The notes under the pieces were generated by a model. The model saw only the letters and a list, made by a program, of their open reading frames with translations. It did no database searches and had not been told where the DNA came from. A stretch of DNA of 64,000 bases from Nemertoderma westbladi. Its lineage: Eukaryota; Animalia; Xenacoelomorpha. Both the position numbers and the translations under genes were made by a program. Location of the stretch: contig JAUCBJ010007171.1 of NCBI GenBank assembly GCA_032718475.1, forward strand, positions 37,170 through 101,169. The letters are read 5' to 3'. Positions 7,486 to 59,721 of the stretch are shown piece by piece (position 1 is the first letter of the stretch; each line of letters begins with the position of its first letter).

Positions 7486-8711
7486 TGTAAAAGCTTTTGC
7501 GTAATTAGCCGGTTATTATCCCCGTAAAGTACTCTGTGGTTGGTTTACCAGGCATAAAAAGGCCGTGTCCTTGCTGTACTGGTGTTTTGGAGGACATAAA
7601 AGCCATTTCTTCTGTATTTGTACTTTAGAGGACATAATCTGCAATTTCGTGACGTAAAAAGCTCGATACTCTTGAAAACAGTGTCGCTACCATGACGACG
7701 GCTAACGGCTGATATTGCCACGTTGCCCCATAGCCCTGCTTTCTGTATCTGCCAATAGGATTTGAGTTGGTTTTGATTTTGACCTATCACAGATCTACTG
7801 AACTGAATTTCCTATCTGTATGCTCATTCTCTGTGGTGGGTGAGATCTTTGTAGAATAAGGGTAGCTGGTATTCTTATAGTTATTCTTATCAGTTTTTAG
7901 TGTTGTTGGTGATTCTAAGCCAGGAAGAACGGCTTTAGCCTTACACTAGTAGGCTTAATTATAAGGACATATATCCGTTATCTGCATTTATCACAACATA
8001 ACATACCATACCTAATCAAACAACCTGTGCATACTTTATATTGTTATACTGCTATTTGCTGTCAGTTCTTCATAATATGGTTGATGAATTATTATATTTG
8101 GAATAACGATAAATAACCCCGAAACCCAATATTCTTGATATACCGAAGGTAAGAGAGAAGGGTTACATATAACAATTGTGACTTATGTTAAAGTGGTTTG
8201 AAGTGAATCTAATGTTATTTGATAGACCCTACATGATTCGGTCCGTGTTCCTTTTATATGTGACTAAAATCAGTGAAGATCGGCAGATCAGTGTGCAGTA
8301 TTGTGCAGCATTGTGTATGAGTGAGACTGATAACGAAGCATTTCCTAAAGAATGCGCCATATATGTGAATTATAACTAAGCCATATCGTTGTGAGTAGTT
8401 TAAGTCATAACTCTGTTTGTATAGATAGAGCGCCACGTCCTAAAGGAACTGTTAATATTCCCCGAAGGTGAATAATATTGTCAGAGATTATATAATACTG
8501 TCAGTCGAATAATACATTAGGCTTACATAGCAATAAAATTAAGCCGTCGAACCCAATCTCCCGGGTATATCCAGCGGGTGAATGATCGCGCACAGATTGG
8601 TTTCGACTAGTGTAGTGAATTAAATACTTGTCATAGGCTAAAGGTGATTTATTATCTAGAAGACATCCTAATTTGGCGGGTTAAACTGCCAAAGGTCTGA
8701 AAGCGCGAACA
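7486..8711 (+). repeat. 3' LTR of element A (~1.23 kb, TGT...ACA)
   Basis: Preceded by GGGAGCGG PPT; starts TGTAAAAGCTTTTGC and ends AAAGGTCTGAAAGCGCGAACA, matching the ends of both B LTRs. Confidence 0.88.
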
Positions 8712-16871: not shown

Positions 16872-17976
16872 TGTTCACGCTTTTAGACCTTTAGCAGTTT
16901 AACCTGCCAATTTTAGTTGTCCTCTTGTTTATAATTCGACTTTAGCGTATATCAATTACCTAGTGTACTGAAGTTACATCAGCCGAAGCCAGTCTGTGCG
17001 CGACCTTTCACCCACGGTTTTGGGAGACTGGATTCGGATTCCTTGAGAGTTATTGCAGTGTAGACCTACTATATCATTCGATTGATCGTTACTATATAAT
17101 CTCTGACAATATATTTACTTTCGGGGAAAATATTAACAGTTCCTTTAGGACGTGGCGCTTTAAGTATAAAAATAGAGTTTTGACTTATACTAATCACAAC
17201 TAGATGGCCACAGAGTTTCGTAAATAGCGCATTCTTTAGGAGATGCTTTATTAACCTTCACACTACTTCACACTACTTCACACTAATCTGCCGACCGTCA
17301 CTGAATTTGATCATAAATAAGGAGGATCGCAACTGACACATGTAGGGATTATGAAATAGCATTTAATTCACACAACACCTATATAATGTAAGTCGCAGTT
17401 GCTACCGGTAAACCTGTTCCTCTTACCTTTAGTAATCAAGAAGATTGGGGGTTTTATGATTATTTATCGGTATTCTCCAAATATAACAACAATATCCATT
17501 AATATAACAACAATTAATAACAGACCTAAACAGAAGTAAAATAGTGCGGTGAACAGTCAGTTAATGAGAAATGATGATACCATGTGAAATTAGTAAGGTA
17601 GGTAAGGAGGGAGGGTAATAGATTTACGTTCTTATAATCAAAGCCATCTGATGTTCCTAAGCTAAAGTCTGAAACTTCCGCACAGAAGCACAGAAAATTC
17701 TGAGTTATTTCTGAGGCTCAGAAAAAATTAAACAAAGACCATAATGCATTGCGCGAGTTTCCATAGGCCTCTGTCAGACATAAAGGGAAAATTGCACTGA
17801 TTGGCTGAACGAGGCAGAACAAAGAAAAATTCCACGTCCACAAAGAATCAGCTGATAGATGTCGTCACACCAGCTCCAATTCCTTCCCGTCGCGTAGTTG
17901 GATAAATTTAGGGCTATTTTAGAGTATTCTGCGCATTGCGGTAAAATGACTTGTTAAGTCCGCAAAAGCTTTTACA
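16872..17976 (-). repeat. 3' LTR of element B (~1.1 kb)
   Basis: Minus strand starts TGTAAAAGCTTTTGCG right after PPT GGGAGCGG and ends AGGTCTAAAAGCGTGAACA. Confidence 0.87.
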
Positions 17977-31192: not shown

Positions 31193-32127
31193 CAACAGTC
31201 AGACAACAATCTAGCCTACAAATCACCTGTACAATCTGAGCAGGCTTACACGTCTTCTGCTCAATATTAACCTACAAGTAAATAAAACTGACAGAAATAA
31301 GTAAGCTCCAAAAGAAACAAGTGGTGTACAGTCCCTAATCTCTTAAACAGCCTACCGGTATACAATATCACAATCGAAATAATACTAGTACCTGTACTGC
31401 AGTAAGTACCGGTTCGGGTGTTAGGTAGTTAGGCCTACTAGGTACCGGTTGGCCGGTACTTCAGCTTTATTGCCTACTGCAATACAGAAGCAATATCTGT
31501 TATTGTTCGCGCTTTCAGACCTTTAGCAGTTTAACCTGCCAAATTTAGATGTCTTCTAGATTATAAATCGACTTTAGCCTATGACAAATATTTGATACAC
31601 TACATTAGCCGAAGCCAGTCTATGCGCGACCATTCACCCGCTGGATATACCGCTTATCAACAGTCAGACAACAGTCCAGCCTACAAATTATCTGTATAAT
31701 CTGAGCAGGCTTACATGCCTTCTGCTCAATATTAGCCTACAAATAAATAAAACTGACAGAAATAAGTAAAATCCCAATAAAAAACCAGGGCGGGCCCTCC
31801 CTGATTAAATATCAAGACCTACCGGTATATAATTATCAAAATCGAATAATACTGCTGTACTTGTACTGCTGTAAGTACCGGTTCGGGTAGTTAGGCAGTC
31901 AGGCCTACTGATTACCAGTCGACCGGTACTTTAGACTGTATTTATTGCCTACACTACAATCATAACTCAATAACTGTTATTGTTCGCGCTTTCAGACCTT
32001 TAGCAGTTTAACCTGCCAAATTTAGATGTCTTCTAGATTATAAATCGACTTTAGCCTATGACGAGTATTTGATACACTACATTAGCCGAAGCCAGTCTAT
32101 GCGCGACCATTCACCCGCTGGATATAC
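31193..32127 (-). repeat. Diverged tandem duplication (477-bp period) spanning the 5' LTR end / PBS / leader junction of B
   Basis: LTR end TGTTCGCGCTTTCAGACC at 31504 and 31981; CAACAGTCAGACAACA at 31193 and ~31658. Confidence 0.85.
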
Positions 32128-33046
32128 CCGGGAGACTGGATTCGGAAGCTAGACCTTATTGCGGTGTAGGCCTACTGTATTATTCGACTGATCATTAATA
32201 TATAATTTCTGACCAATATTATTCACTTTCGGGAAATATTAACAGTTCCTTTAGGATGTGGCGCTCTAAATATGTAAACAGAGTTATGACTTACACTAGA
32301 CACAACGGGATGGCTATGGATTCACGTATAAAGCGCATTCTTTAGGAGATGCTTTGTTATCAATCACAATCATGCACACTACTGCACAATGCTGCACACC
32401 GATCTGCTGACCTTCACTAAATTTAGTCACATATAAAGAGAACAACGACCGATACATGTAGTGCCTATGAAATAGCATTAGATTCACTTCAAAACCACTT
32501 TAATGTAAGTCGCAATCGTTATATGTAACCGGTCTCTTACCTTCAGTATATCAAGAAGATTGGGGGTTTTATAATTATTTATCGATATTCCAAATATAAT
32601 AATATTCCATCAACTGATATAATTAATGACCGACAGTAAATAGCAGTAAAAATGCGGTGTTTGTAGTTGACAATATGATTAGGTGAGTTTGTTTGATATG
32701 ATATGGTATGTAGTGATATGATAACAGATATACGTTTCTATGATCAAGCCTACTAATGTTGGGCTAAAGCCTGAAAACACAGAGATTCCAAAGCCGGTCT
32801 TCTGGCATCAGGAAAAAAGGAAAAACATTGACCCATAATGCATTGCGCGATTTCCCGGAGGTTTCTGTACAAATAACAGGAGAATCGCTCTGATTGGTTG
32901 TCCGAACAAAGAAACAAAGGAAAAGCTACACGTGTACATATATATTATCTTTAATTCAGGCCCAACGGCCCATAGACATTACATAGGACAAATGGTATAA
33001 CTGCAATTAAATAATTTAAACTAATATAAGCTAATATAAATATATA

Positions 33047-35947: not shown

Positions 35948-35961
35948 TAAACCAAATTCCC

Positions 35962-37511: not shown

Positions 37512-38880
37512 GCCCTGGATTGTTAAATCCAGCCGACATTGCTTCTCGCGGCGCCACCCCTCAGGAACTGATAGATACTAAGTGTTGGTTCCAAGGACCT
37601 GCCTTTTTGCGAGGCCACGAAGATAGTTGGCCCCAAAACATAATGCCTGCAGAGATAAGGCAGCAAGTGAAAGGCGCAGAATTCGCTAAGTATAAGAACA
37701 AGGCGTCCAAATCAAAATTATTCAATAACATCGACATATCTTCACTACATGTGCGTGAGAGTGTGAGCCCGCAGACCACCCCAGATAGTGAAGCCCTCAT
37801 TACCCTCTCTGTTCCAGACTTGACTGACGGCCTTTCACCGCTCATTAGCAGGGCCATGGATCACTATAGTTCCTACACTTACTTTGTCGTGCCGTTACCA
37901 TACTGAAGCATTATGTGTACTACCACTGTAATAAAAACAAAATCACACAATGTAGATAATTGGTACACGAAGTAGACTATACAAACAGGCAGCTACTCCG
38001 ACTATCCCAAATGCAAGAAAAGGCTCCACCGTACGGATACCACCTCAAGCACCCCGCTATGCAGTCGAATGATAAATTCTCCAGCGTGATGTTCGACGGC
38101 CTAATCAGAGTGGGAGGTAGGCTTACAAATGCTCCCCTTTCCCGCGTCACAATATTTCCCATTATTATCTATGATCTCGCCATACAAACAAAAGATAATA
38201 CAGGATGTACACAATCGGTTGTTGCACGCTCGAAGGGAGCATATACTTATATTAGTGAAGTGCGCACTAGGTATTACTTTGTAAAACCCAGGAAAGCATT
38301 AAGTAAAGTTCTGCGTAGCTGTTTACCCTGTAAGAAACTGTATTTCCAACCCATGACTCAGTTAGAAGCTCCCTTACCTAAGTAACGTGTTAGCTGCTAC
38401 GAGCCTCCCTTTACACATACAGGTGTAGACTTATTTGTACCAATAGAAGTCAAGAGGGCTCGAACCATGGTTAAAAGATGGTGAGGCCCTCACACCAGCC
38501 CACTTTCTGATGAAAAAGAAAGTAGTGTTGTTGCCAGGTTGAGGTTGAGGACGGTGATGAGTTACTGCGACAGACCTGGAAGATGACTCAACTGCTGTCA
38601 AGCCGATTCGAGAACCACATTGAGCGATTTTATCTTCCCAGCATACAACTCAGGAACAAATGGTTTTCCGTGAAAGACAACGCCAGAGTAGGCGACATGG
38701 TATTAGTAGTGGATCCTGATCTCCCACGGAAATATTGGCAGACAGCGCGCGTAGTAGAAACTACTACGTCCGTCCTATAGGCCACCTCTGCCTGCTAGAA
38801 ATGGCACGCGAAGAATCTGGCAACTACGGCAAGCAAGAAGTCAAGCTGACAGACTTGACATATTTTCTATTGGATTAGTT
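37512..38880 (+). pseudogene. pol: Element C RNase H-integrase remnants
   Basis: NPADIASRG, WFQGPAFL, GLIRVGGRL, CLPCKK, PFTHTGVD, GDMVLV and YWQTARV motifs. Confidence 0.85.
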
Positions 38881-40652: not shown

Positions 40653-42555
40653 ATGGATACTTCTAAGGACGATTCAATGGGCAATATTTATGTGAGTTAA
40701 CAACTTTCAGAGGAATATCGCCGAGGTATGAGAGAGATGATGGAGGATCTGGTGACACCCGGAGCACCACAACAGTATACGGAGCCGCTAATGTCCCCCA
40801 TAGAGATATCAGAACGACTTCATGAACAGATACACCAATATTGATGGATCATACAAACCATTCGTTATATCCGGACATCCAAGCGACCTCATATATTCCG
40901 AAGACGTTCATGAGCGACAAGATATGGAAATGTGGCGCTACCATGTACGAAGACAATGAGAGAATTCCACCCAGATGGATAATGAAGATGCGATTCAGGA
41001 CGCCATGTCAGCGAACGATGCGGAAGCTATCAACAATGTGGCTAGATGTGAGGATTTAATTACCTTCCTCAGAGAAACGTATTTAAATTTGGCAGCAGCC
41101 CAAACCCAGCAAACTCATTACCCCAAAGGCATCCACCCAGATCCAATAGTGGAACTCAAGCGCTTGTACCACACAATGATGTACTTAACCGCAGCTAGAC
41201 CTTTACCCGTGTTGCCGGATCGTTTCGATGCTATTGGGGAGTATCACAAAACTGGTTCCCGATCTCCACACATAAGTCGCCAGGACTTTAAATTATGGTA
41301 TTTCTGTGACGACTGTCCACACCCTAACCAACAAGTAAACCATGATGACCACGCATGATGGGGCCGACCGGTCAATCACCCCCGTGAACGTTGCTCTAAG
41401 CACAGTTATACGCATTTAACATATGGAGGACACGAGCGTGATTTATTCGGCGTGGATGAACGAGCCTTAAAGAAATTACATAAAATGGAGTGTTTACCCA
41501 TTGACGTCCTACGATTTTCAGTGCGGCCCCCGGCTCCTAAAGTTCAACCGTCTCTAGTTCTTCTCCAGGATTTCGGCCCTTTAGATGAGGATTACTCCGA
41601 ATACCAAGACATGATTCTACCGGAACAGCTGATCCCTCGAGAGGAACCGGTGATAACCCCCTTGATACAGGCCATGGACAACACTGCGTTCTAACCAGAG
41701 ATCAATACATTGAGAGCTCGTATCGCCGAGGAAGACCTACAATCCTTCTGGGATTTCCTTTCCAATCTCCAAGCTGAGGCTAGAGAGAAAGAACGGCGTG
41801 AGGAAGAAGCGATAGCGCTGGAGGATGCCGACCTCATCGTCTACCGCCAACCTTATGTCCAATCGTTGATGGAAGGTTTTCAACCTAAACGTTACGTTCA
41901 CCCTTCCATGCAGCATAAGGTCTTCGGCACCAAGCAACCGTGCATCATCGGCGTGGCCACTGAAACCGCTTGTGCTATTGCCGATGTTCCGATGTTAAAG
42001 ATGCCTACCCTGGAACCATTACGTGTAGATGGTGAATTAGTTCCCCTTCTCGCACTTGAGCCGACGTAATTCGGGAAAAGATCCATGGAATAAATGTAGC
42101 GCATTGTCCTTTACACTATCCCTTCTACGGAATTAAAGACCATCCTTGGTTTGTGATGTTTAAACAACACTACGTCATACAACCAGAACACCCTGGACGG
42201 GATATGTGATTCTTACCATATTGGTGAACCCCTTGGACCTCGCCTGGACCAAAACTGGAGGCTTTGCATCTACATTTGGATTATTTGGTGAAATTAACAT
42301 AGTAACATTAACTTATAACATAGTAACAATACAAGCCAGTCCACGTCCACCCTTTAACTTGGAGACATTTATGGATTACCGTCTCCTCATATACTGGAAC
42401 TTAGATGTAACCTTCCTGGAGGATGATTTGAAATATATCGAACCAAATGTAAATACTAATGATATGCATAGCTATGAATCCATAAGAATAGCGCACGGAT
42501 GACCCAGTTCATTAGATACTCAATGGAAACCAGTAGAACTGACCACCGAAGTGGC
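40653..42555 (+). pseudogene. Element C accessory ORF, N-terminal part (homolog of the A/B accessory ORF), interrupted by element D
   Basis: FLRETYLN..YPKGIH..ELKRLY.TMMYLTA.RPLPV, WYFCDDC, PEQL, HPSM, ADVPML and FYGIKDHP match B. Confidence 0.85.
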
Positions 42556-44461
42556 TATAGAATTATATTCCCTAAATGCCGTGGATTTTCAAAATTTTAT
42601 TTTTATTCGAATTAACTTTGTAAAAGATTGCTTTGAGTCCTCATTTGTATTGCTATTTCTATTTGTACGCCTATTATTCAAGTGGTTCAGTAGCTCAGTC
42701 GGTAGAGCGTTGGAAATTATATGTGTAGTAGGTATTGAGTTCGAATCCTAGTAAGTGCGAATTATTTTTTGTACAGAATTTCAACTCATTTAAATTAACC
42801 GCTACAAATTAAATTGCATTTGTTTGTACCTAGATTAACCAATGAGACTGCAGTTATTTGATCGTAACCAATGTCGTGCAAGTTATATATTAGCTGGACC
42901 AATAGTTATCTTTAAAAACCTGTTAGAACCTATAGAACAATCGAGAATTTTCTCGATTGATTGCAGCACAAATTTGCTATATAAAGGTGCGATTTGTTCA
43001 TTAGTTATCTCTCAATCACTTCTTGCAATATCTCTTCTGTATTATTCAATATTGTTTATTCTGTCATTAGTTTTCAGATTATATTCGTATTATTATCTGC
43101 AATAAATTCAGAAATACCGCTACCAGCCTTTTCTATCTGTTTTACCATGATTCACTACGGTGAACAAACTTAAGAACAGGATGGCCGGCTAGAGATCGGG
43201 CCGCAGCAATGAACGGGAACATCACGGGAATGTAGACAGGAGACAACCCGCAATACCATCTCAGTTATTCGCCCATCGCCTGAAAGGTTAGACAGCGTTC
43301 GACGCCTTGCTACCTAAGCGTAAGACCAAAAATCAAAAGGTAGAAGTAGTGACACGCTGTAAGCCTAAAATTACATCTTAGGGACTGTACTGTCTTGATT
43401 CAGGAAAAAACCACAGTAGACCTTCACATTCCTACGGGGGAGAGCGCAGGCAGAGATACTAGTACGCAGATAGGACGTAGGCACACCGGTACTAAGCATA
43501 CACATTGGTAGGGTGCAGCAAACTGTACGCCTAACTCTTGCTAAGTGCAGGTGCGTTTGCGACTATATGTAGTACAACGGTGTCCATTGCATTAGAACTT
43601 GTAGGCTAGGAGGGTTGCTGTGTTTCACCTGAATTGGGATTGTACCGTTCAGGCGGTAGGACAGTTTACAACTAGGCGCAAATAAATTGAGGCTATTAGG
43701 GATATACTAACATCTACCGTGTCCCCGCCAACGTCTTGATAGGAAGTTACCCAGCCTACCTAGGTGACTAAAATTCTAGATAGGACGCCAGGATAGCTAT
43801 TTGTAACAGTACGCCTACTGTAGTAAACTAACACATTTCTTCTTAGTATTAGGGGCCTGGTAAATTAAAATTGCCGAATTCTGGGCGTAGCATTAACCTT
43901 ATGCCTGAATTTGAGTCCTGGAAATACGCAAGAGGGGAAGGAACCTTATCATTCGTGAGTATTGGACCTACAAGTTACAAAATTAAAATATTCGTAAAAT
44001 GCACACCGTACCCAGTAATTATATATGTGAAGGAGTAAAACTGCTTTTGACCATTCAGAATTAACACACGCGCGTTAGAAATTATTTACACCTCAAAATA
44101 TATAAAATTAACTTTGTCCGTACTGTGCTTTGCCCGCTAGTTAGACATCTCAAAATCTCTGCCTCTGTACCTAGCTAGCGTCCCTTTCGCCCAACCATAT
44201 AAATCACACCGCGGCAAAGTATACGAGCCCTTTAGTCCGTCAGTGAGTCAGCCTGATTTTAGGATTCGCTGCGCGGGATTTTGTTTTATCGAAGTTTGTC
44301 TGCTCGTAGACTGTTTTCTGCCTCACCGGTTATAAGAGATCGATACTGCAATATATTCGCTTACTTAGAGTTTACTGTTTTGGTGAGAAGGTCGGATTTA
44401 TGATTTGATTCACAAACTTTACAGTAGGATATTGCAGGTATTGTTACTGTCTCTTCAAATA
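42556..44461 (+). repeat. 5' LTR of element D (1906 bp, TAT...ATA termini)
   Basis: Direct repeat of 57823-59716; TATA box at ~42979; AATAAA at 43101 and 43681. Confidence 0.96.
42684..42770 (+). ncRNA. tRNA-like Pol III cassette in the D LTR (second copy 57951-58037)
   Basis: A box TAGCTCAGTCGG with a perfect D-stem GCTC/GAGC, B box GAGTTCGAATCC and T6 terminator; acceptor and anticodon stems do not pair. Confidence 0.7.
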
Positions 44462-44480
44462 GTAGGAATGTGTTTTACTG
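44462..44480 (+). promoter_or_regulatory. Non-tRNA primer-binding site of D, complementary to its own LTR (43425-43435 and 43414-43420)
   Basis: GTAGGAATGTG is the exact reverse complement of CACATTCCTAC; no TGG start. Confidence 0.72.
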
Positions 44481-45270
44481 AACTACGGTTCGGTAGGACT
44501 AAAGTTATTTGAAAATTCTGTATTTTGAGGTAAAATTCATATTTGATTAGCTAAGTGCTAATTTTTTGAAATAAAAATTTGATTTGAACCGCGCGTAAAA
44601 TATTTTTGGAATTGAATACCGGTGTTTAAAAGGGTTTAAATACCATATTGTACCGGTACAAAATTTTTCGTAAAAGTAAAACCTAACTCTTTTGTTTTTC
44701 AGGATTCAGAACTCATTTCTAGACTGTAACGAGAGCAAGACCGTGTTTAGCAAGTTTGGGAGATAGATAACTCAACAACTTTGGTTGGGAAAATTGCGCT
44801 TCGTCCGCAACGTTAAAAACGGAAAGGTTCACGTCCGGTTTGTATCTGGGAATCTGTTTTTCTGGAGAATTATTGGAGTGGGTGAGTTCGAAAAGTTGCA
44901 TAAATAAGTTAGGCATTACCGCATTAGTTAAAATTATTGTGGGTTCCACTGTCTCAAGTATTTATGCATTCCGTATGATTTCTTTGTTCATTGCTGAATT
45001 AGTCCGTATTATTGTATTTAATTTACCTTTTGATAACGCATATCGTTATCCGATTTATTTGTTATAAAATTGGCCGCTAGGCTAAATTTATTATATACTT
45101 ATTCCGTGACATTTATTTGCTGTAAAATTGGCCGTTTAGGCTAATTTTATCCACCTGCTATAAAATCGGCCGGTAGGCTAATTTTATATGACTGTAATTA
45201 GTACCGTTTAGACAAAATACGGTAAGTTTGATACTTTGACACTCACTTTACTTGACTTACAACTACCGAA

Positions 45271-48200
45271 ATGAGTGACAAACAAGACTATACGAAGAAT
45301 ACACCTACCGACTATGACTCATGTGACGCGGATAAGTCAGCAGCGGAAGAACAACAGGGGAAGACTCGCGAGCCTACCGAACCTACACCGTGTGCGTCAC
45401 CAGTACATCCAACGGGAGTACCAGATGCCGTAGTACGAGGCGACGGCAGGACCGAGGACTTTCTAACTGTTCCGCAACCTAGATACAGGGAAACGGACAT
45501 GGTAAGTTCAGCAGGAAGCACAGAAAGTGTGGTTAGAAGCGTCGGCGGTTACATGGCGCATATTACCAGGAGTATTGGAGAAGGCCAACGCATATTAGAC
45601 GAGTTAACCGCTCCGATGTCTCGGCTCGAGTTCTACACTCTACAGGTGAGAGTACAGAGTAAAGTATATAAGTCCGTAGATAACCTAATTGGTCTGCAAG
45701 ATCTAGCTAGACAGAGACAGGATATGGACACTCAGCTTAGAATCCTCGAGAAACTAATGATCGCTAGAGAGAAACTGATTCAGTTTAAGTCGACGATTAG
45801 GCAGATACAACAGGAACAAGCGGACCAGTTGTTAGGTGAGTCAGTTTCGGACGAATTATTGCAACCCGAGGAAGAACAGGAACTGTACCGACTGGATGGA
45901 CAATTGAAACACCTGACGGATCACTTACGCATGTGCGGTGAGGACGTCGGAGATTGGGAAACCGTGCCGGAGGCTACGAGGGAAACTTCACTCGCACAAA
46001 TCGAACTGGCACCGGGGACACTAAATCAATCACTGGTGAGTATTCGCAGCGAAATTGGCGAGGTGAGTATGGCTACGTCAGAAATTGCTCGACAACAGCA
46101 ACTCTACAGACAACAACAGGAGATGGAGGAACAAACTCAACTGCTAATGGCACAAGCAGCCGTACAAGAAGAGAAACTACGGGTTGCGAATGTTGCAAGA
46201 ATTTCTCATCTGCAAGAACAAGCCGAGTTGGAAGCAGCCGAGATGGAAAGGTTAGAGTTGGACATTGCACAACAAATGCGGCAGCGGCAGCGGCTGAGTT
46301 AGAGCGACAAGCGGCGGCAGCGGCAGCGGCTGAGTTAGAGCGACAAGCGGCGGCGGCAGCAGCAGCTGAGTTAGAGCGACAAGCGGCGGCGGCAGCAGCA
46401 GCGGCCGAGTTAGAGCGACGGAGGTTAGTATCAGAAGCGAGAGCCGAGATGAAAAAACGGCAAATAAAGGCTCAATCAGCTATACGACAAGCGGAGTTCG
46501 AGGCGCAACAACAACAGACGGAACAACGCGAGAAGGAAGTTAAACTTCATTTCGAACTCGGGAAGAAGGCGAGAGAATTAGCCAATGCGAAGGAAGATCT
46601 GGATCTACAAGCCCGCGATCGATCGATGAGATCTCGTGACGGACACGATTTAGACCGGTTAGAGGTAAGACACCGCCAAATTCAGGAACGAATGAAGGAA
46701 GGAAGTGTAGGGGCACCTGGGCGAGAAAGACAATTAGTTAAAGACTTATGTCAAAGATTCCCTCAGGTAACTCCTATGTTTGCACCGGTTACGACTAAGG
46801 AACCTGTTTCGATTGCTGGTAGTAGTAATATTTCTCCTATCCATGGTGCGACGGAACACAGGTTTGTTATTCCGGACAAGTTTACACCGCCAAGAGCAAC
46901 GTCATCGCCTATTCCAAAAGTCAAGGTAAGTAACCCGCCGATTACAGATCGTAGTAGTTTATTAGTCGAACCTGTATTACTGACGACTAAACAGGTGAGT
47001 CCACCTTTGACACCTAAACCGGTTACGCACTACGCTTACCCAATGACGTTTCGACCTACAAGGCCAGTTGATTCAAAAGCGGTTATTCGACCACCGTTCA
47101 ACCAGTTTACATCGCAATCTACGACTTCGAGGAAGACTTGTGAGCCTACCGAACAACGGAGACCAGTGGATACGCGACCGTTCAACCAGTTTACATCGCA
47201 ATCTACGACTTCGAGGAAGACTTGTGAGCCTACCGAACAACGGAGATCAGTGGACGATGTTCCGGAACGAAAAGTGAGAATTCGTACGACGCAACGGACG
47301 CGAGCACGTCGACCACCATACCCAGATGATAGTAGTACTTCGAGCGAATCGGATTACCCGAAACGCGAGGTATTTAGAACAGGGGCGGCCGATGAATATA
47401 AACGCGAGCGTTCAGACAACTCCTTTGTAGACAATCCTCCACAGAATACACCAACACAGAAGGCGTTACAACCAACGGACGCAATCAGTACACAACAGTT
47501 CGCCGACATCATGCGACCAGTTGTTAACAAGTTGGCTCAGATCGAGGAACGCTTGGAGGAAGTTCACACCGACAGTTCGAGAAATTCCGAATTCGAACAC
47601 AATAGACACCCGAAGGAACCACAAAGACCGGTACCTTCAAAACACACATCGTATCAGGGAAAAGCGCCAAGAAGGGACATCAACCAGATTACCAACCAAG
47701 GACGCGAAACTCTGAACGTTGCCGAGGAGATAGCGAAATTCGCAGCCAGACAGGGATTGCCGGTACAACAACCACCGAAGTTTTCCGGTAGCTCAAAACA
47801 CTGGCACACTTTCGTGGACTATATCGAATCTCAGATCGCCGTGTGCGCCTTTACATCACGGGAGAAGTTTAATTACCTGCTTCAAACGTTGTCAGGAGAA
47901 CCTAAACGTTTGGCAGAGACCTTCGTTGGTGTACCGGACGCTTTCGAACTAGCGTACGATCGTTTAACTTCGATATACGGAGGTACAGTCAGCATGGCCA
48001 GGTCAGTGATAGAGGAACTCTGTAAGGGAGGGGCTATCACTAAACCCGTCGACTTATTAAAACTGGCTGACGAGATAAAGAACGCTATCACTACTTTGAG
48101 ATCCATTGGACAACTTGACTACGGGAATACCCCTACAGTCCTATTAAAGATCATAGGACGACTCCACATTCGACTTCGTCGGGAGTGGAGGAAGATCGAA

Positions 48201-50096
48201 TACCAGCGAGAAGAGCGGGGTGGATTCTTAAAATTGGAAGATGTGTACCTTTTGATATCCAGGGAGGCAGTGGTAGAAACTCGATCCAACTACACTGACC
48301 AGCACATCGTGGCAGAAGGAATCACCTTGCCATCCTCAAACCGACAAAAACCCCAGACAACATCCACTAAGACGGCCACTTACGCCACACCGACGGAATC
48401 ACGACAATTCTCGGACGGTAGTAGGGTATCTGCGCCCATTGGGACAAAACAGACGAGACAGCAACTCAGTACCAACTTCAGCGGCTGCCAATACTGCGAG
48501 CATTTAGGCAAGCGGTATATCGGTCACAAGTTGAGAGGTTGTCGACAGTTTCGCGAGTTAAACTCGGAAGAACGACGGCTGCAGATACGGCCATTGGACT
48601 CTTGTTGGCGGTGTACGCGACACGGACACGTTCGCAAGGATTGCCCAAATACCGACACTTGTCCATCCTGTGGACGCAACCACGACGGTCTGCTCCACAC
48701 AGACAGCCACACGCCGACAAAACGCTTCACCAGGGAACACCCGGAAGCAGCAGCGAAATGTGATGCGGCCTACAAAAATCGAGAATCGAAAACGACTCCA
48801 ACCTTTGTGACACATATCAAGGATTGCTTCTCAGAACAATCCGGATCGTCGGACGAAGAGTCAGAAGACGACGACGTATATTCTGATGGAGACGACCAAC
48901 CATCGATCGCGCTTCTGACAACTGACCAACTAAAGGGATTCAGCGTAATTCCGATTAAGATTACTGGCACAAAGGGGAGCAAGAGAATCTACGCTATCCT
49001 GGATTCAGCCTCATCTCACAGCTACGTGGATGAGCAGATAGCTGACGTAGTGACGGATCTCAGACAAGGTAAGTGCGTCAGCTATACCGTAAGTAGTATG
49101 CACGGACAACGTGCAATACCAGTGACACGAGTTAAGTTGGATTTAGACACTCTTCTTCCAAAATCGCAACACAGCGAGAGGGAGAGGTCTTTGTTACCCT
49201 TCAAGGATTTGACTTTTGCAGCCACCAAAGACTTTAGTAACCTACTAGGTCCTGTCCCAGAACAATCCTTGGAGGACCGTAAGTATTTCAGACACCTTGG
49301 TGTACCTGAATGTCCTGTCAATTATAGATCGGTAGCCATGCTGATCGGGACAGACCAATTCAATCTACATCAAGTGTGGGAAACCAGACCATCGGCAGTC
49401 GTAGCGGGAAACGCATACGCCTGTAGAACGCCGATAGGGTGGTATACTCGAGCGCCTGTGCGCACACTGGACATAAGTGACGAGGAAGACGATGTACAAA
49501 GTACATGTAGTTTATTAACTACAAATTCAATTCATTCCTTTTCACACGACGTGGACCATACTACCTTACATACAAAACATGACAGACGTGTAACTAGTAT
49601 GATAAGTCACAAGGAGCAGCTAATTCACCAGGTGAGTTTAGAACTTGGGGAGAAGACGAGTCAGCTAGAGATTCCATCGACGACAGATGATAACGCCGGA
49701 AGGCTTGCGAGTCTACCTACCCCAACAACCTCAACAATGCCTGTCGATATCGATGATGACGAGTTGAGAAATCATCAAGTGGAACAAGCTGCACTGGACA
49801 AAGAATTAACGGAGAAGACTATCAGGTGGTTAGAACAAGATACAGCTGAACCTGGTAGCTACGAACCATGTATGTCGGAACAGGAGAAACAATCTTTGAG
49901 GATCATGGAAGATACTATCCGCCAGACGGAGGACGGACATTATGAGGTAGGGAAGTTATGGCGTAGCCAAAGTCCTAAACTCATAAATAACTACCCACTA
50001 GCTTTAAGACGTCTACACTCAATACGACAACGTCTATTAAAGGACGAGAAAGCCCATCTGCAGTACAACACTCAGATGGAGACGTATTTGATTTAA
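45271..50096 (+). pseudogene. gag: Element D gag-protease (frameshift in the Ala repeat ~46277; stop at 50096)
   Basis: PKFSGSSKHW, KFNYL; CQYC..H..C, CWRC..GH..C and CPSC..H..LLH knuckles; ILDSAS, LIGTD and TPIGW; 84-bp in-frame duplication at ~47093-47255. Confidence 0.92.
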
Positions 50097-50659
50097 TTGT
50101 AATCGTAATTGTATACGCTATCCGAATGACTAACCCAGAGATAGTGACTAACCAGACATACTATTTGCCACATCACTATGTGAGACACCCCGACAAACCA
50201 GACAAAGTACGGGTAGTCAATGACTGTGCGGCTCTGTTTGAGGGAATGTCCCTCAATAGCGAGTTGATGGATGGACCAAACATGAATAATTATCTTATGG
50301 GGGTGATTATGCGCTTCTGTCAGCGTCAAGTAGCTTTTACTTGTGACGTTGAAGCTATGTTTCACCAAGTGAGAGCGTTAGAGCAAGACAGAGACAGTTT
50401 GAGGTTCCTCTGGTATCCGGAAGGAGACTTAAGTCTACCACCGGCGACTTACCAAATGCAAGTTCGCGTTTTCGGTGCCAGAGACAGCCCAAACTGTACG
50501 ATGTACGCCCTAAAACAAGCCGCTAGGGATCAGAAACATTTATATGACCCAGAGATAATTAGGATTGTGGAGCGTGACTTTTACGTCGACGACGGTTTAC
50601 AGAGTTGCGACACAGTAGAACGTGCTACAACAGTAGCACATCAATTACGGGACTGCTTA

Positions 50660-51096
50660 CCATGCTGGGCTCTAACTGCTGAGGACACCAAATCTCTGGA
50701 TGGCACATTCACAAGAATGCTACGCCGGGTACATTGTGTCAAGTACAATGCACACATCTCCAACCAGACACTATATAACATTGGAGGTGTCTCATTGGTT
50801 CCCCCAAGCTTGACACTAGAACAAAATCGCCTCCGCTTTGCAGGACATTGCTTTCGCCGTGAGGACCAGCCAGTGCATAATCTTGTACTTTGGCAGCCTC
50901 ATGGAGTGAATAAGCATGGTGGACAGCCTATGACTTTCTTGAGACGCATCTTAAAGGACACTGGCCTTAAAGATGCGGATGATCTAGCAAATGTCATGGG
51001 TGATAGGGAGTTGTGGCGGTGCAATTTTGTTGACAAGCCGGCACAGCATTCTTAAAAATGCAGCTGCAATGCAGCATGCCGATCATAGTAGTAGTA
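50660..51096 (+). mobile_element. 5'-truncated RTE LINE (437 bp) inserted in the D RT
   Basis: Near-identical to the reverse complement of 11113-11545, ends (TAG)n, and interrupts RDCL|AGGGFNLTKF. Confidence 0.93.
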
Positions 51097-52199
51097 GCGG
51101 GCGGAGGTTTTAACCTCACCAAATTCGCCTCAAACAGTGCCGAATTAGTAGACTCATTCGGAACGACTGAGCATGGAGGTGGTGACATAGACCTAGAGTT
51201 CGAACCACTACCGACGACCAAGGTGTTGGGGCTCTTTTGGGACCCAAACACGGACAACTTTCGAGTAAAGGTGAGACTGGACAGTCAAGAAAACACACTG
51301 ACAAAGAGATCATGCTTGTCAAAATTGAGCCGATTGTTCGATCCATTAGGATTCATCAGTCCAATAATACTGCAAGCCCGCATTTATATGCGCAGTATTT
51401 GGAAGGATGGACTGACATGGGACGAGCCGATCTCATCAGACCAAGTGGACTTATGGAAGACCTGGGAGGCGGAATTATCTTCGCTAGAGGATTATTCCAT
51501 ACCCAGAGTCTACTTTCCATTACAAACAACGTTTCCTGACAACTTGGAATTACATTGTTTTTCTGACGCCAGTGACAACGGTTTTGGTGTGGCAGCGTAC
51601 TTGCGCAGACAAGTAGACTCAGAAGAATTCGATGTTTCGCTCATTACTTCTAAGGCAAAAACAATGCCTACTAAGTATATGACGACACCACGAGCTGAGC
51701 TACAAGCCGCAACCCTGTCAACCACCATCGTGAACCTTATACAGACAGAACGACAGTCAAGTTTACAGATATTTTATTGGACTGACGCGACGTTGGTTTT
51801 ATTTTACATAAATAACGACACACTTGAATTCAAGACATTCGTAGCTAACCGTCGCGCGGAAATTCTAGACCGTTCAATAAAAGAAGATTGGCGACATTGT
51901 CCCGGACCACAAAACCCAGCCGATATTGCGTCGCGAGGAATGATGCCTGAGGAATTCTGTAAACCGGAGAACAAAGAATTTTGGCAACACGGACCCCAAT
52001 TCTTGCAGAAATCGACGCAAGATTGGCCACCACTATATGACAACAAGTCTAACACTATCCCTAAAGACGCGGAAATCAAGAAACCAAAAAAGGGGAAGGC
52101 AAAGAAAAAGACGACGGCAGCGAAACTCAAGAAAAAACCGAAGGCGAAATGGAAAGATATAACTTCAAAGGTCAAGAGAGGAAGACTTGCGAGCCTTTC

Positions 52200-52780
52200 T
52201 ACACCAGACATATCGCCAGACGGTCAACCAGACACGTTACTAGACAGCCAACCAGACATTTTACCAGACATGTCACAAAATGTTCTACCAGACGCTAGTA
52301 ACATATTGACAAATAGTAAAGCCGCAGTTTCCCTATTGGAGCGGCCTTCTATTGACAAACAACCAGATACGTTACCAGACGTATCGCCAGACACGTTACT
52401 AGACGGTCAACCAGACGTTTTGCCAGACACGTCACTAGATATTTCGCCGGATGTTCCGCGAAACATTTTACCAGACATGTCACAAAATGTTCTACCAGAC
52501 ACTAGTGACATACTGACAAATAGTAAAGCCGCAGTTTCTCTATTGGAGCGGCCTTCTATTGACAAACAACCAGATACGTTACCAGACGTATCGCCAGACA
52601 CGTTACTAGACGGTCAACCAGACGTTTTGCCAGACACGTCACTAGATATTTCGCCGGATGTTCCGCGAAACATTTTACCAGACATGTCACAAAATGTTCT
52701 ACCAGACACTAGTAACATACCGACAAATAGTGAAGCCGCAGTTTCCCTATTGGAGCGGCCTTGTATTGACAAACTACCAA
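52200..52780 (+). repeat. In-frame 207-bp (69 aa) tandem repeat built from xxPD tetrapeptides between RNase H and integrase
   Basis: AAVSLLERP recurs three times 207 bp apart; CCAGAC recurs about every 12 bp. Confidence 0.9.
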
Positions 52781-55324
52781 TTTTGACACACTTGAGCAAC
52801 CACAAGCACGGTGAAACCTCATGTATTACAGATGTGGGTAGTACCTACGCTAATGTAAATACAGGTGTTACTCTGCGCTCAAGAGACATACCAAACTTGC
52901 AACCTATGGTGAAACCTGGGATTAATGTCGGCAGAAAATTAAGTTTACCGAAACCCAGTGACCCCATAGAGTTCAAACCACCATTAACGATCGACTTACA
53001 AAGTACTGACAATCAAGGTAAGAAGACGAAGAAGGACAAATTACTTGTAGACCCGGACGGATCAACAGTCAACAAGGGAATACCTACCGGCGGACCCGTG
53101 GGCCCTTCTAGTAAATCAAAACCTTCCAAAATCTCCATTGACTTACCTGATGACGTCACAAATACTTACGTCGACCGTATTGTAAATCTAACAGATTCTT
53201 GGACAAACGCTTGCCGAAAATTAGCGTGGATTGTACGTTTTGTACAATACGTTAAAGGCAAACGTGACTTTACACGTCGACTTACATTGGCTGAGATTGA
53301 CAGGTGTGAGATTAAATTAATTCGCCATTACCAACTGCGATATTTCGCGCGCGAATTCACATCCATAAATCAAGGTCAACCAATCAAGTCGTCACCAATA
53401 CTGAGTTGGAGTCCGATAATTTATAATGGCTTAATTTGTCATAAATCTCGGCTTCAAAACATTGACTTTAACACAAACTTTAGATACCCAATAATAATAC
53501 CACAACATCACGAACTACAACGTGCAATGATACTGGACGCACATTTACATCTAAAACACGCTGGAAGACACCACTGTCTTTCCTACTTACGTACAAGATT
53601 TGTATTAATTAGACCCAGTAAAGCGTTAAGTTCAGTGACACGTACGTGTATTATTTGTAAAAAGGTACATTCTAGAATAGGTACCCAAGAAATGAGTGAA
53701 CTTCCACAAACACGACTTCAAGCATTCAGACCACCTTTTACAGATACTGGAATTGATTGCTTTGGTCCCATACATACGAAACGTGGACGTATACTAGTAA
53801 AACGCTGGGGACTGATTTTCACATGTATGTCCAGTCGGGCAGTTCATATTGAACGTGTGATGGATCTTTCCACCAACGCGTTTATACTAGCATTGCGGCG
53901 ATTTATCGCCAGACGCGGACTAGTGAAATGCTTGTACTCAGACCAAGGGACAAACTTTGTTGGTGCACGGAATGAGATTGCTAGAGCCTTTAAGAAATTA
54001 GATCATGATCAAATCTCGAACGAACTACAACCTCACAAGATTGTTTGGAAGTTTAATCCTCCAGATAGTCCATGGAGAGGCGGAGTCTGGGAGAGATTGA
54101 TTAGATCTATAAAGACAGCCATGGCAAAGGTCATTCCAGTAAACCACATATTGACAGACGACCAACTGACAACATTGTTTGTTGAAATCGAGGCAATACT
54201 AAATACTAGACCAATAGTATTAGTACCCGATGACAAACAATCTCAGTTCGCTTTGACACCGGCACACCTGCTTATGCAGGCACCGACCACATTAATGCCT
54301 ATTTCTATTCCAATAGAAAGCGACAGCTACGGTAGAAAAGCGTGGAAAATCACGCAACTACTGGCTAACAAATTCTGGGAAATATGGCAAAACCATTATT
54401 TGCCCTCTATTTCTGCCAGAACAACATGGTACAATAACACCCGCGCATTAAAGCCGGGAGATCACGTGCTGTTAGCAGAAGTGAATCTAAAAAGACGCTT
54501 CTGGATAACAGGTGTAATTTTAGCCACACATCCATCTATGGATGGAGTGACAAGAACTGTGACGGTCGTACAGTAGACAGACCGACTCAAAGTCTCGTAC
54601 TTCTTGAAGAGACTCGTAACGAGTCTGGAGACTATAAATCTCCAACTAATGTTAGTAAATAATTAGGAGTTTACAAATAGATTTCCACGTACCTGTACAC
54701 CGTAGTAAGGACAGCGGTAGAATTCCATTGTCTTTATATGTGAACATTGAGGGTAGTACCCTTATGTGTCACATAGGAGCGGGATTTGTAGGTATAAGAA
54801 ATGGAATTCTACTTGGAACTCACAATATTGAGACATTTTCGAAATTTTAGACAATCCATTTGGATTTGAAAAATTTTTAAAATTTTCTACAGTGAATAGA
54901 TTTCAGGGTACAGTCGGGTGGAACTTAAAATTAGAGAAACAAGAGAGGAAGACTTGCGAGCCTTTCTTAAAATTTTAATTAAATTTTACACGGTCTTGTT
55001 TCAATAAGTTACGTCAATAAATAGACTCCCCTATATTTATTACTAATTCTTGACTGCTTATTTCTGATAATAGTTTGGGATCAAAAAGTGAGTATTTTAG
55101 ACTCACAGCCAGTTTAGCCCAAATTCGTTTTTATTTCGGCAAAAAATTTTAGATAAGAAGCAGCGTGTCATTAAAGAAACCCTAGATCTTAGGCTATGGG
55201 TAGGAGGTTAGAGCGTTGTCGAGCCAAAAGGGCAGACGAAAACTCTCACGTCTCCTCACAACTAACTACAAACTCTGTTGTATTCCCTCTAGTAGCAATG
55301 ATTATGTAACCATTACTTCCAATA

Positions 55325-56928
55325 ATGGAGAAGGGGATACAAGGAGAGCCGAGATGGGGATATGATATCCAAGAGGAAGCAGCAGCGCCATTCGAACGAT
55401 TTGGAGCTAAAGATTACACTATATTTGGAATAAAGGAATTATCAGAAAGTACAGCGAAACTCGCAAACACTAAATATGACACGACGGTATCGTGGAGGTT
55501 ACGAACGAATCACGGCAGACGCGTGCGCCTATCGGTCACCTTGGTGATGATTTCGAAGTAACTACTACGATCACTGACGATCCTTTAGAGGAACTTCTTG
55601 AGATAGAAAGGAACCTCCCGAAGAAATCTCAGACGGAGATTCGACAACTTGAAGCAACAGATGCTATAGTTTGTATACAACCCTCAGAAACCTACCAACC
55701 CATAGATCCAGATGATTACGATTATAGTGTGGGAGGAAGCGCTCGACCGATTGGAGATCTTATATACGAACGAGTGTGGTACCCTGCCAATACGATGTGT
55801 GGTAAATGTGGCGTCGCTGGACATCATATGACCAAGTGCAGTGGAAAGCACATTACTACGACTCAGCTAATCTGTGGATGGTGTGGGGATCAAGGGTCTC
55901 ATATCTTTTATACTTGCTGGAGATTTATGGCTCAATGTACTTATTGCAATATAAAGGGGCATCGAGCATCTGAATGCCAACTAAGAGACATACCTTATGA
56001 ACACGAATCTGTAAAACTCGTGAGGAAATTATTTGATGAGTGGGAAGATTTAGCCGACGAACATGTATCGGCACAAAGAAGACGATTTCCGATGAGGGCG
56101 CATCTTGGATTTTGGGCGGTAAATTCCCAAACGATGATGTCGGAAGGATATATCTCCGCTATGCCCCAATATGACGAACTTATCGAGGTAGTCGATATTT
56201 TGCCCCACGACAGTGGATTCCGAGTAGTGCGCGAGTATCTACTACAGATTCACCCGGATAACAAAAACACGTGGAATTTTCAGAAAGTCATTAATCGCAT
56301 CACGTATGGTGAATTCGATCGTTTCCGAACTGAAAAGCGGAATAAAGGAGCTTGGTTAACCGTCGCATGGGCGTACCGAGCCGCGTTTTACCATAAACGT
56401 ATACGAGCGAGCGTATTCGAGGAAGAGGAGGTCCTAGAGGCGACAAATATACCAGCCACTCCGGTTGCGCCGTCTGCACGTCACCCTCGGGAGGACGGAC
56501 AGGGTAGGATCATACGGGTCCAGAAAGTGGGCCAACAGTTAAAGAAGTCTATTAATATAGAAGAACGCAAGGGAGTCGAGCCGACCATTCGAATTACTCG
56601 GGATACGGTATCACTTCCTAGAGAACCAACAGGAGGATCGGGACATACACCAGCTGATCAACAGGGGGCGCAAGCTACTCTTGGGTCTGCGTCGTCCGCT
56701 TCTCGCGCGTTCCCAGACGTTCTACCAACTGTAGTGACAACTGATCGGTCACGAGGAATCGGTCGAGGTTTTGGGATGCCAAATAGACGAATTTGCGAGG
56801 AAATAGTCGCACCGTCTCTCAACGTCCAAACGAAACCAGTGACTCGCCCCACAAGTCCCATATCGCGAGCAAAGTCACCTGTGCGCAGTTTTCGAGGACG
56901 CGGCAGGGCTCGATCAACTAAGCGATAA
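55325..56928 (+). CDS. Element D accessory protein with three zinc knuckles and an Arg-rich C-terminus (probable frameshift near 55490)
   Basis: CGKCGVAGHHMTKC, CGWCGDQGSHIFYTC and CTYCNIKGHRASEC; ends RGRGRARSTKR; lies between pol and the 3' LTR. Confidence 0.8.
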
Positions 56929-57822
56929 AGGGGAGGGCAAGGGTGGACGGAAGACTCGTGAGCCTTTCTTATGATTTGTGATTTATTCGAATTTATATTT
57001 ATATTTGTGTTTATTCCGAACTTAAGCAATTTGTATTGTTCCGAATTTATGAAATTTAGAAAGTTTATATTTAGAAGGAACTTATATTTGAAAGATTTAT
57101 GTTTCATATTTGAGATGCAAAGGAGTTTATATTATTCTAAACTTATGCAGTTTATATGTATATTTAGTAAGAATTTATATTTTGCAAGATTTATATTTTA
57201 TATTTGAGATTATTCCGAACTTATGCAATTTATATTGTTCCGAATACTATGCAATTTATATCTTATAAGCAGTATTTGTATTTACAGTGAAATAGAAAGT
57301 AAGAGTAGATGGAAGACTCGTGGGCCTTTCTTATAGTTTCATTTGTAAAGTGTTATATTTTGTATTTAGAAAGTTTTATAGTTAGAAAGTTTTGTGCTTA
57401 GAAAGACTCATATTTGTAATTATTCCGAACTTATGCAATCTACATTTAGGCACGAAAGTATTTGTAATTATTTGAATTTATGCAATATTTGAGATGCAAT
57501 AGTAGATGGAAGACTCGCGAGCCTTTCTTATGATTTTCATTTATTTGTATTTGTAATTGTTTGAATTTATGCAATATTGAGATGCAATAGATTTATATTG
57601 GTGAATTTAATTTAGATTTATATTGTACTTACTTAGTAAAGCCTTAACTACGTAAAGTTTGAATTTGTAATTATTTTGTATCGAATCATTACGTAGAAAG
57701 GAAGTATTGTTTGAAATTTAATTGTAAATATGTAAGTACGCCCTAAGTATTCTATAGTTTGACTGATTATTGGTGAAAACCGTATATTTTATGCACGATA
57801 ATATCCTGTTTTCATGGAGCGG

Positions 57823-59716
57823 TATAGAATTATATTCCCTAAATGCCGTGGATTTTCAAAATTTTATTTTTATTCGAATTAACTTTGTAAAAGATTGCTT
57901 TGAGTCCTCATTTGTATTGCTATTTCTATTTGTACGCCTATTATTCAAGTGGTTCAGTAGCTCAGTCGGTAGAGCGTTGGAAATTATATGTGTAGTAGGT
58001 ATTGAGTTCGAATCCTAGTAAGTGCGAATTATTTTTTGTACAGAATTTCAACTCATTTAAATTAACCGCTACAAATTAAATTGCATTTGTTTGTACCTAG
58101 ATTAACCGTTATTTGATCGTAACCAATGTCGTGCAAGTTATATATTAGCTGGACCAATAGTTATCTTTAAAAACCTGTTAGAACCTATAGAACAATCGAG
58201 AATTTTCTCGATTGATTGCAGCACAAATTTGCTATATAAAGGTGCGATTTGTTCATTAGTTATCTCTCAATCACTTCTTGCAATATCTCTTCTGTATTAT
58301 TCAATATTGTTTATTCTGTCATTAGTTTTCAGATTATATTCGTATTATTATCTGCAATAAATTCAGAAATACCGCTACCAGCCTTTTCTATCTGTTTTAC
58401 CATGATTCACTACGGTGAACAAACTTAAGAACAGGATGGCCGGCTAGAGATCGGGCCGCAGCAATGAACGGGAACATCACGGGAATGTAGACAGGAGACA
58501 ACCCGCAATACCATCTCAGTTATTCGCCCATCGCCTGAAAGGTTAGACAGCGTTCGACGCCTTGCTACCTAAGCGTAAGACCAAAGATCAAAAGGTAGAA
58601 GTAGTGACACGCTGTAAGCCTAAAATTACATCTTAGGGACTGTACTGTCTTGATTCAGGAAAAAACCACAGTAGACCTTCACATTCCTACGGGGGAGAGC
58701 GCAGGCAGAGATACTAGTACGCAGATAGGACGTAGGCACACTGGTACTAAGCATACACATTGGTAGGGTGCAGCAAACTGTACGCCTAACTCTTGCTAAG
58801 TGCAGGTGCGTTTGCGACTATTTGTAGTACAACGGTGTCCATTGCATTAGAACTTGTAGGCTAGGAGGGTTGCTGTGTTTCACCTGAATTGGGATTGTAC
58901 CGTTCAGGCGGTAGGGCAGTTTACAACTAGGCGCAAATAAATTGAGGCTATTAGGGATATACTAACATCTACCGTGTCCCCGCCAACGTCTTGATAGGAA
59001 GTTACCCAGCCTACCTAGGTGACTAAAATTCTAGATAGGACGCCAGGATAGCTATTTGTAACAGTACGCCTACTGTAGTAAACTAACACATTTCTTCTTA
59101 GTATTAGGGGCCTGGTAAATTAAAATTGCCGAATTCTGGGTGTAGCATTAACCTTATGCCTGAATTTGAGTCCTGGAAATACGCAAGAGGGGAAGGAACC
59201 TTATCATTCGTGAGTATTGGACCTACAAGTTACAAAATTAAAATATTCGTAAAATGCACACCGTACCCAGTAATTATATATGTGAAGGAGTAAAACTGCT
59301 TTTGACCGTTCAGAATTAACACACGCGCGTTAGAAATTATTTACACCTCAAAATATATAAAATTAACTTTGTCCGTACTGTGCTTTGCCCGCTAGTTAGA
59401 CATCTCCAAATCTCTGCCTCTGTACCTAGCTAGCATCCCTTTCGCCCAACCATATAAATCACACCACGGCAAAGTATACGAGCCCTTTAGTCCGTCAGTG
59501 AGTCAGCCTGATTTTAGGATTCGCTGCGCGGGATTTTGTTTTATCGAAGTTTGTCTGCTCGTAGACTGTTTTCTGCCTCACCGGTTATAAGAGATCGATA
59601 CTGCAATATATTCGCTTACTTAGAGTTTACTGTTTTGGTGAGAAGGTCGGATTTATGATTTGATTCACAAACTTTACAGTAGGATATTGCAGGTATTGTT
59701 ACTGTCTCTTCAAATA
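57823..59716 (+). repeat. 3' LTR of element D (1894 bp)
   Basis: Follows GGAGCGG PPT; differs from the 5' LTR by one 12-bp indel and about nine substitutions. Confidence 0.96.
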
Positions 59717-59721
59717 GTGGC

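Follow-up and report, generated by a model that had tools for sequence, protein, structure and literature searches.

According to the excerpts of PMC4600332, PMC5341516 and bioRxiv 2022.12.06.519325 on which we draw, Tf1 and Tf2 of S. pombe, Tj1, Tosmo and the Tf1/sushi elements have no tRNA primer-binding site (PBS); a short duplex forms between the long terminal repeat (LTR) and a PBS just past the 5' LTR, and a cut by reverse transcriptase (RT)/RNase H has been proposed. Self-priming is also described, in the part of PMC6317226 used here, for the Tcn1 chromoviruses (Ty3/gypsy) and for the TAR lineage of plant Ty1/copia elements (Houba, Osr-1), for which it was predicted from sequence. TAR places self-priming in a second superfamily, and that part of the paper contains no intron-split primer. 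For Belpaoviridae, the ICTV account (PMC8742986) gives an 18-nt PBS for tRNA-Arg or tRNA-Gly, priming by host tRNA and LTRs of 0.2-1.2 kb.

Further BEL/Pao literature was compared from excerpts (PMC554778, PMC3601003, PMC8220671, PMC12451622, PMC3286476, PMC6238403). PMC3118150 mentions neither primer, PBS and tRNA nor intron and splicing; the parts compared of PMC6238403 mention no primer or tRNA, and those of PMC554778 no PBS or tRNA. No report of BEL/Pao self-priming or of an intron-split primer was found in the literature searched, a search lying outside the PBS tables of GyDB, Repbase and article supplements, which could bear on novelty. One BEL/Pao element, Cer7 of C. elegans, is said to have been proposed to encode its own primer RNA, a tRNA-like one, whereas the candidate primer described below is a stretch of LTR.

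Element D and the site beside its 5' LTR

The window, that is, the whole 64,000-nucleotide stretch of Nemertoderma westbladi DNA analysed here, contains an LTR retrotransposon, element D, in which the site abutting the 5' LTR is complementary to a segment within that same LTR. Its parts are as follows:

42551..42555, plus strand: left target-site duplication (TSD) of D, GTGGC
42556..44461, plus strand: 5' LTR of D, 1906 nt, TA...TA ends
43425..43435, plus strand: candidate self-primer core, 11/11 complement of 44462-44472; predicted primer 3' end C43435
44462..44472, plus strand: candidate non-tRNA primer-binding site abutting the LTR, no spacer, no TGG
45271..54576, plus strand: gag-pol region of D in four frames, from domain and motif content
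50660..51092, minus strand: insert within the RT of D, 98% identical to 11113-11545, which adjoins a LINE-type RT
55480..56928, plus strand: extra open reading frame (ORF) of D, 482 aa, Cys/His knuckles, no Pfam match
57816..57822, plus strand: short purine-rich tract, like a polypurine tract, preceding the 3' LTR
57823..59716, plus strand: 3' LTR of D, 1894 nt, with its own core copy at 58680-58690
59717..59721, plus strand: right TSD of D, GTGGC

Element D is a BEL/Pao (Belpaoviridae) retrotransposon, as the earlier note had it, and the 5' LTR end at 44461 that the note took from the TSD and the LTR alignment stands, GTGGC lying on both sides and BEL/Pao Pfam domains between. The two LTRs are 9 substitutions and one 12-nt indel apart in their alignment, which extends two bases (GT) past the end because the TSD also begins with GT. 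The gag-pol region contains a triple Cys-His box, a protease, an RT with YVDD, an RNase H (DAS/E/D) whose acidic residues D/E/D are kept, and an integrase with D(61)D(49)E, close to the D(62)D(49)E of Sinbad as given in the excerpted literature. Pfam matches are DUF1759, Peptidase_A17, DUF5641 and a weak Integrase_H2C2; the gene order is PR-RT-RH-IN between LTRs with a TSD, the arrangement that the BEL/Pao definition demands, and RT and RNase H are nearest to BEL/Pao proteins in a comparison that held no non-BEL outgroup. Given these BEL/Pao domains and no chromodomain match in Pfam, membership of D in Tf1/sushi (Ty3/gypsy chromoviruses) was rejected. With the ICTV description D shares the Gag-PR-RT-RH-IN order, the triple Cys-His box, YVDD, DAS and the 5-bp TSD; it differs in having no such PBS, a 1.9-kb LTR and TA termini. 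The copy is defective, with frame changes and an RT broken by the insert, and either it would have needed proteins supplied in trans or it was broken after insertion.

Several features of D stand apart from the pairing. Its LTR termini are TAT...ATA, not TG...CA, beside a TSD of 5 bp; non-canonical ends recur in metagenome loci L002 and L013, which start with TG and end with TA. Between RNase H and integrase, pol carries a long in-frame low-complexity insert with 207-bp tandem repeats (51900-52900), and ORFs to the right of D (59642-61724) have no convincing Pfam match.

The exact 11-mer complement without spacer or TGG that had been claimed is confirmed: 44462-44472 and 43425-43435, about 1 kb apart, form 11/11 Watson-Crick pairs. 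The expected number of such complements per D LTR is 4.1e-4 from base composition and 3.1-3.8e-4 from Markov models of order 1-2, so the chance of about 5e-4 given earlier is recomputed as 3-4e-4; empirically, 11 of 13,350 internal 11-mers of D have an exact complement in the LTR. The 18-nt PBS for a host tRNA 3' end of the ICTV description is absent, there being no TGG in D, in a second element of the window (B) or in 11 relatives; this criterion is descriptive only, as Belpaoviridae taxonomy rests on Pol. In all of these elements the site next to the 5' LTR, judged non-tRNA by the missing TGG, is complementary to their own LTR.

Given a post-LTR site without TGG and its complement in the LTR, D likely starts minus-strand DNA with its own RNA, and self-priming in some form is very probable on the same sequence grounds. 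The best reading, by analogy, is that the feature would work like Tf1 self-priming in a BEL/Pao element outside Tf1/sushi. The likeness to Tf1, as far as the excerpts describe it, is a PBS beside the 5' LTR that pairs with the element's own LTR, without a tRNA-type site; the Tf1 PBS begins with ATAAC (excerpt of PMC11042837), the same five bases as the PBS of B. The two systems differ in superfamily, BEL/Pao here and Ty3/gypsy there, and in that the primer of many BEL/Pao relatives is split by a predicted intron.

Element B, the relatives and a predicted intron-split core

Element B lies on the minus strand, has TG...CA LTRs and an RT about 46% identical to that of D, and carries core and PBS letters unrelated to those of D. 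Its pairing positions, and those aligned with them, are:

32721..32731, minus strand: LTR-internal core of element B, an 11-mer unlike that of D, 740 nt ahead of the LTR end
31970..31980, minus strand: first post-LTR site of B, after LTR end 31981, 10/11 complementary
31493..31503, minus strand: second post-LTR site of B, after the duplicated LTR end 31504, 11/11 complementary
7971..7981, plus strand: aligned core position in the 3' LTR of element A, one change relative to B, its PBS outside the window
17615..17625, minus strand: aligned core position in the B-side 3' LTR, differing at four positions, with no PBS to match it in the window

The two post-LTR sites stem from a tandem duplication of about 477 bp (31190-32128, minus strand) that covers LTR end, PBS and leader, its copies 86-94% alike; at the first copy, which has the mismatch, the core did not form in cofold. 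Because its 5' and 3' LTRs are only 73% identical and its flanks are not a TSD, B is probably a recombinant. It appears to have inserted into element C, a decayed third BEL/Pao element on the plus strand (13756-16322, with gag from about 13756, and pol remains at 37526-38824), for which no recognisable LTR pair was found in the window, a 102-bp repeat at 12436/62467 failing to extend. A LINE occupies 33050-37134 within the B 5' LTR; an element of about 700 bp with terminal inverted repeats and TTAA ends, which we take to be piggyBac-like, sits in the B leader (about 29380-30100), and the extra ORF or ORFs between pol and 3' LTR (18003-20227, minus strand) have no convincing Pfam match. An AG/GTAAGAG donor is conserved in three B-type LTRs (32541-32535 minus, 8150 and about 17425 minus), about 190 nt past the core, and D has U5 donors at 43955 and 44243 with a leader acceptor at about 44702; splicing at such donors would remove the PBS and give a translation-only RNA.

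Of 434 metagenome loci that were confirmed, the 80 scoring best in an RT alignment were taken as relatives, and a direct repeat flanks the RT in 34 of those 80; a search of viral contigs found no relatives. Among the 34 we selected by eye 11 loci in which two LTR copies stay alike up to a CA or TA end and part from each other past it. They form 11 separate clusters at 80% RT nucleotide identity, though L003, L016 and L025 have a nearly identical core. We find a complement to the own LTR of 10-13 bp, at an offset of 0-4, in all 11. In three it is contiguous, 10-11 bp long; in the other eight it comes about only when a GT-AG intron of the LTR, predicted from motifs and 67-186 nt long, is taken out. 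The contiguous match of these eight is just 6-9 nt, situated at a pyrimidine-rich AG, and grows to 10-13 perfect pairs once joined to what precedes a GTAAG or GTACG donor further upstream. The need for a predicted splice in 8/11 speaks for an RNA primer, that is, for a duplex in RNA. D itself has a possible 84-nt GT-AG intron (43320-43403) that ends about 21 nt ahead of the core, which forms without it.

The covariation of post-LTR and LTR 11-mers that the earlier note had named as a check is borne out: D, B (at its second end) and the 11 loci all pair at 10-13 bp with different letters, 13/13 scoring at least 10 with about 11 different sequences and TGG in 0/13. By the same rule, 6/156 PBS-by-LTR cross-pairs score at least 10, all within three sister families (0/150 of unrelated pairs), and 7/520 windows shifted into the leader do. 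The scoring rule, with its splice option and offset of up to 4, was fixed after inspection of the same loci, so these nulls control the flexibility of the rule, not its choice. Where only the LTR start was fixed and ends were inferred (12 loci), 8/12 give 10-15 bp, against 16/132 pairs of at least 10 in the corresponding null (6 of them same-family or sister pairs, 10/126 unrelated). Three of the four misses reach 11-15 bp once the region is lengthened and an offset of 5 allowed; L014 has no match of at least 10 even then. Under relaxed rules, and with no null, another 16 partial loci gave at least 10 bp in 9 cases and none in 7, and the matches of L009 and L019 look like chance. The 3' ends of the 13 cores are AC in 10, AT in 2 and CT in 1, which has AC one base in; this A-pyrimidine end possibly reflects a cut-site preference.

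As controls, a search of a genome collection with insect-branch proteins gave 15 loci, of which 8 were examined, evidently eukaryotic contigs inside bins. L088, L090, L091, L092 and L094 are whole BEL/Pao retrotransposons in prokaryotic genome bins, probably host contamination, and L094 is one copy nested in another. An LTR pair is present in 4/8, with a TGG-type PBS of the same sequence behind it in each, and the motif recurs in a fifth locus; the best self-complement of the TGG-PBS controls is 5-6 nt (4/4). We take this PBS to match tRNA-Tyr.

In two RT trees the self-pairing elements all belong to a single clade (support 99/94 and 95/95), together with proteins of fish, flukes and bryozoans; the insect rows and the TGG-PBS elements lie outside it. 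D and B group together (97/90 and 87/92). Elements with contiguous cores are interspersed among intron-split ones at three or four places in the tree, which suggests repeated loss or gain of the intron; the tree, built on 170 columns with many open forks and no outgroup, does not give the direction of the change.

Helices, transcript ends and rival readings

The question of how long the primer would be turns on sequences around the core and on where the transcript begins and ends:

43414..43420, plus strand: second helix, its arm in the LTR ahead of the core, from cofold, shuffle z -2.25
44474..44480, plus strand: leader arm of the second helix
43439..43449, plus strand: arm able to pair with the LTR end 44447-44456 (Tf1-type flank), from cofold, z -0.94, p 0.13, not significant
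42839..42985, plus strand: candidate Pol II promoter from motif scan, three CCAAT boxes and TATATAA (42978), about 447 nt before the core
43101..43106, plus strand: AATAAA ahead of the core; if self-priming holds, it is predicted not to serve as the genomic poly(A) signal
43681..43686, plus strand: first AATAAA past the core (+245); its counterpart in the 3' LTR is the predicted poly(A) signal

A second helix between LTR and leader, already put forward in the earlier note, does form in cofold, pairing 43415-43420 with 44474-44479 with one G-U and a 4x1 loop (shuffle z -2.25, p 0.03). In a set of 17 elements, pairing between the 18 nt that precede the core and the 18 nt that follow the PBS averages -8.7 kcal/mol, against -5.4 for mismatched partners (0/20,000 permutations). 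Against shuffles this upstream helix has z<0 in 15/17 and p<0.05 in 6/17 (Stouffer p 4e-7; B not significant), and the signal fades past about 12-24 nt upstream of the core. The Tf1 primer, in the excerpts, is the RNA 5' end, with two flanking helices formed by LTR sequence downstream of it, whereas the conserved extra helix here uses upstream sequence. D can form a Tf1-type helix between its LTR end and the stretch past the core, and the cofold of the whole duplex including it reaches -42 kcal/mol; across the elements, though, such a helix is not conserved (permutation p 0.12, shuffle p 0.47), and it was discarded as a general feature.

The 11-mer had been placed inside the transcript, well downstream of a TATA box at about 42979, and TATATAA indeed starts at 42978. 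The recurring upstream helix and the cores of relatives that straddle a predicted exon joint favour an internal position, but the fold of D from the start set by the 42978 TATA lacks the core. In folds of the 1.1-1.5 kb 5' region of D the core forms from starts at 43400 and 43425 (P about 0.9-1.0); from 43008, 43130, 43250, 43330 and 43380 no core forms, and forcing it costs 3.4-9.6 kcal/mol. With differences of only 1-2% of the total energy, folding does not place the start. What does not hold is the claim that an internal 11-mer needs an added cleavage or a separate RNA, because the Tf1 mechanism already cuts 3' of the paired stretch, and a longer 5' part would only lengthen the primer.

A start at 43425/43426 would give the strict Tf1 geometry, in which the capped RNA would supply only its first 10-11 nt as primer and the upstream helix would be incidental. 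An initiator-like TCA at 43424-43426, a core P of about 1.0 in the fold from 43425 and TATA-like boxes 31 nt ahead of the core in L068 and L036 are consistent with it. We regard it as possible but doubtful, as neither D and B nor 12/15 loci have a TATA-like box within 60 nt upstream (one about 30 nt before the core is found in 2/17 elements and is not conserved), the upstream helix is significant across families, and the first exon of intron-split relatives would be just 4-10 nt. It would still be self-priming and takes its part of the probability of the best explanation.

Alternatively, the pairing could serve as a regulatory or packaging switch in the RNA while a host small RNA, a tRNA fragment or a protein primes. 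Long-range LTR-leader pairings occur in retroviruses. Half-tRNA priming is described for Ty1/copia lineages in the part of PMC6317226 used here. We consider such a switch unlikely: the site is always 0-4 nt from the LTR end, in place of a TGG PBS, and the 10-13 bp are perfectly Watson-Crick with an A-pyrimidine end and letters that differ by family, whereas the tRNA-primed controls share one invariant PBS.

Very unlikely, in our view, is a separate short LTR RNA acting in trans with no RNase H cut, whether from a tRNA-like unit in U3 or as a transcript aborted at 43435 or processed to end there. The U3 of both D LTRs does contain a tRNA-like unit at about 42680-42770 with an A-box, a B-box and a T-run, perhaps what is left of a SINE or else a Pol III/TFIIIC site, and the AATAAA at 43101 suggests short upstream transcripts; the tRNA-like primer said to have been proposed for Cer7 would also fit. 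As a primer, the unit was rejected: its complementarity to the PBS is limited to 5 nt, about 650 nt separate its end from the core, and it is called by neither ARAGORN (0 tRNA genes in the window) nor Rfam (on 42500-45300, 4 sub-threshold matches only, no ribozyme or tRNA); the intron-split cores, moreover, point to a spliced Pol II RNA. Chance, or an inverted repeat at the DNA level with no priming role, is scarcely credible, for although the 11/13,350 positions show that one 11-mer can match randomly among many windows, 13/13 elements pair against 0/150 unrelated pairs and eight cores are absent as contiguous DNA.

Proposed mechanism and meaning

In the self-priming that we favour, the 5' part of the transcript, spliced in many relatives, would fold onto PBS and leader. 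The RNA would then be cut after C43435, behind the A-pyrimidine, putatively by the element's RT/RNase H, a role assigned from the Tf1 analogy only, and the resulting 3' end would be extended. RT would copy U5 and R back to the cut, leaving strong-stop DNA that ends at 43436; strand transfer from such an end needs an RNA 3' end past the core, so the genomic RNA would be polyadenylated downstream of it, at the equivalent of the AATAAA at 43681, not at 43101. A poly(A) hexamer lies 12-97 nt past the core in 11/15 loci, the first of D at +245. In plus-strand synthesis the primer would be copied and the PBS thereby regenerated, which would keep the core perfectly Watson-Crick. That the primer is longer than the 11-nt core is the somewhat more probable arrangement, because sequence up to about 12-18 nt upstream of the core pairs with the leader across families. 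The template for everything 5' of the cut, any intron included, would be the RNA's 3' LTR, so that an LTR intron would survive if unspliced there, and intron-less forms like D and B would arise if it was spliced.

Extended to the whole BEL/Pao branch, the scheme would have a capped first exon gain a few second-exon bases by splicing, pair with PBS and leader and be cut after the A-pyrimidine, while the 3' LTR copy keeps the intron and cannot prime; D and B would be intron-less descendants using the same long 5' RNA, the intron-less state having arisen several times. We give this extended scheme an even chance. Self-priming of D, for its part, gives single-base predictions, an RNA end at 43435 and poly(A) downstream, checkable in existing 5'- and 3'-end and long-read RNA data.

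Replication of Belpaoviridae is called poorly understood in the ICTV account (PMC8742986). If the reading is correct, a large non-insect branch of BEL/Pao would work without a tRNA primer and BEL/Pao would become the third LTR superfamily with self-priming, which would explain why LTR finders that rely on a PBS would overlook such elements. It would also be the first case found in which splicing would assemble a primer, coupling reverse transcription to host splicing, and the elements would escape control through tRNA supply and 3' tRNA fragments.
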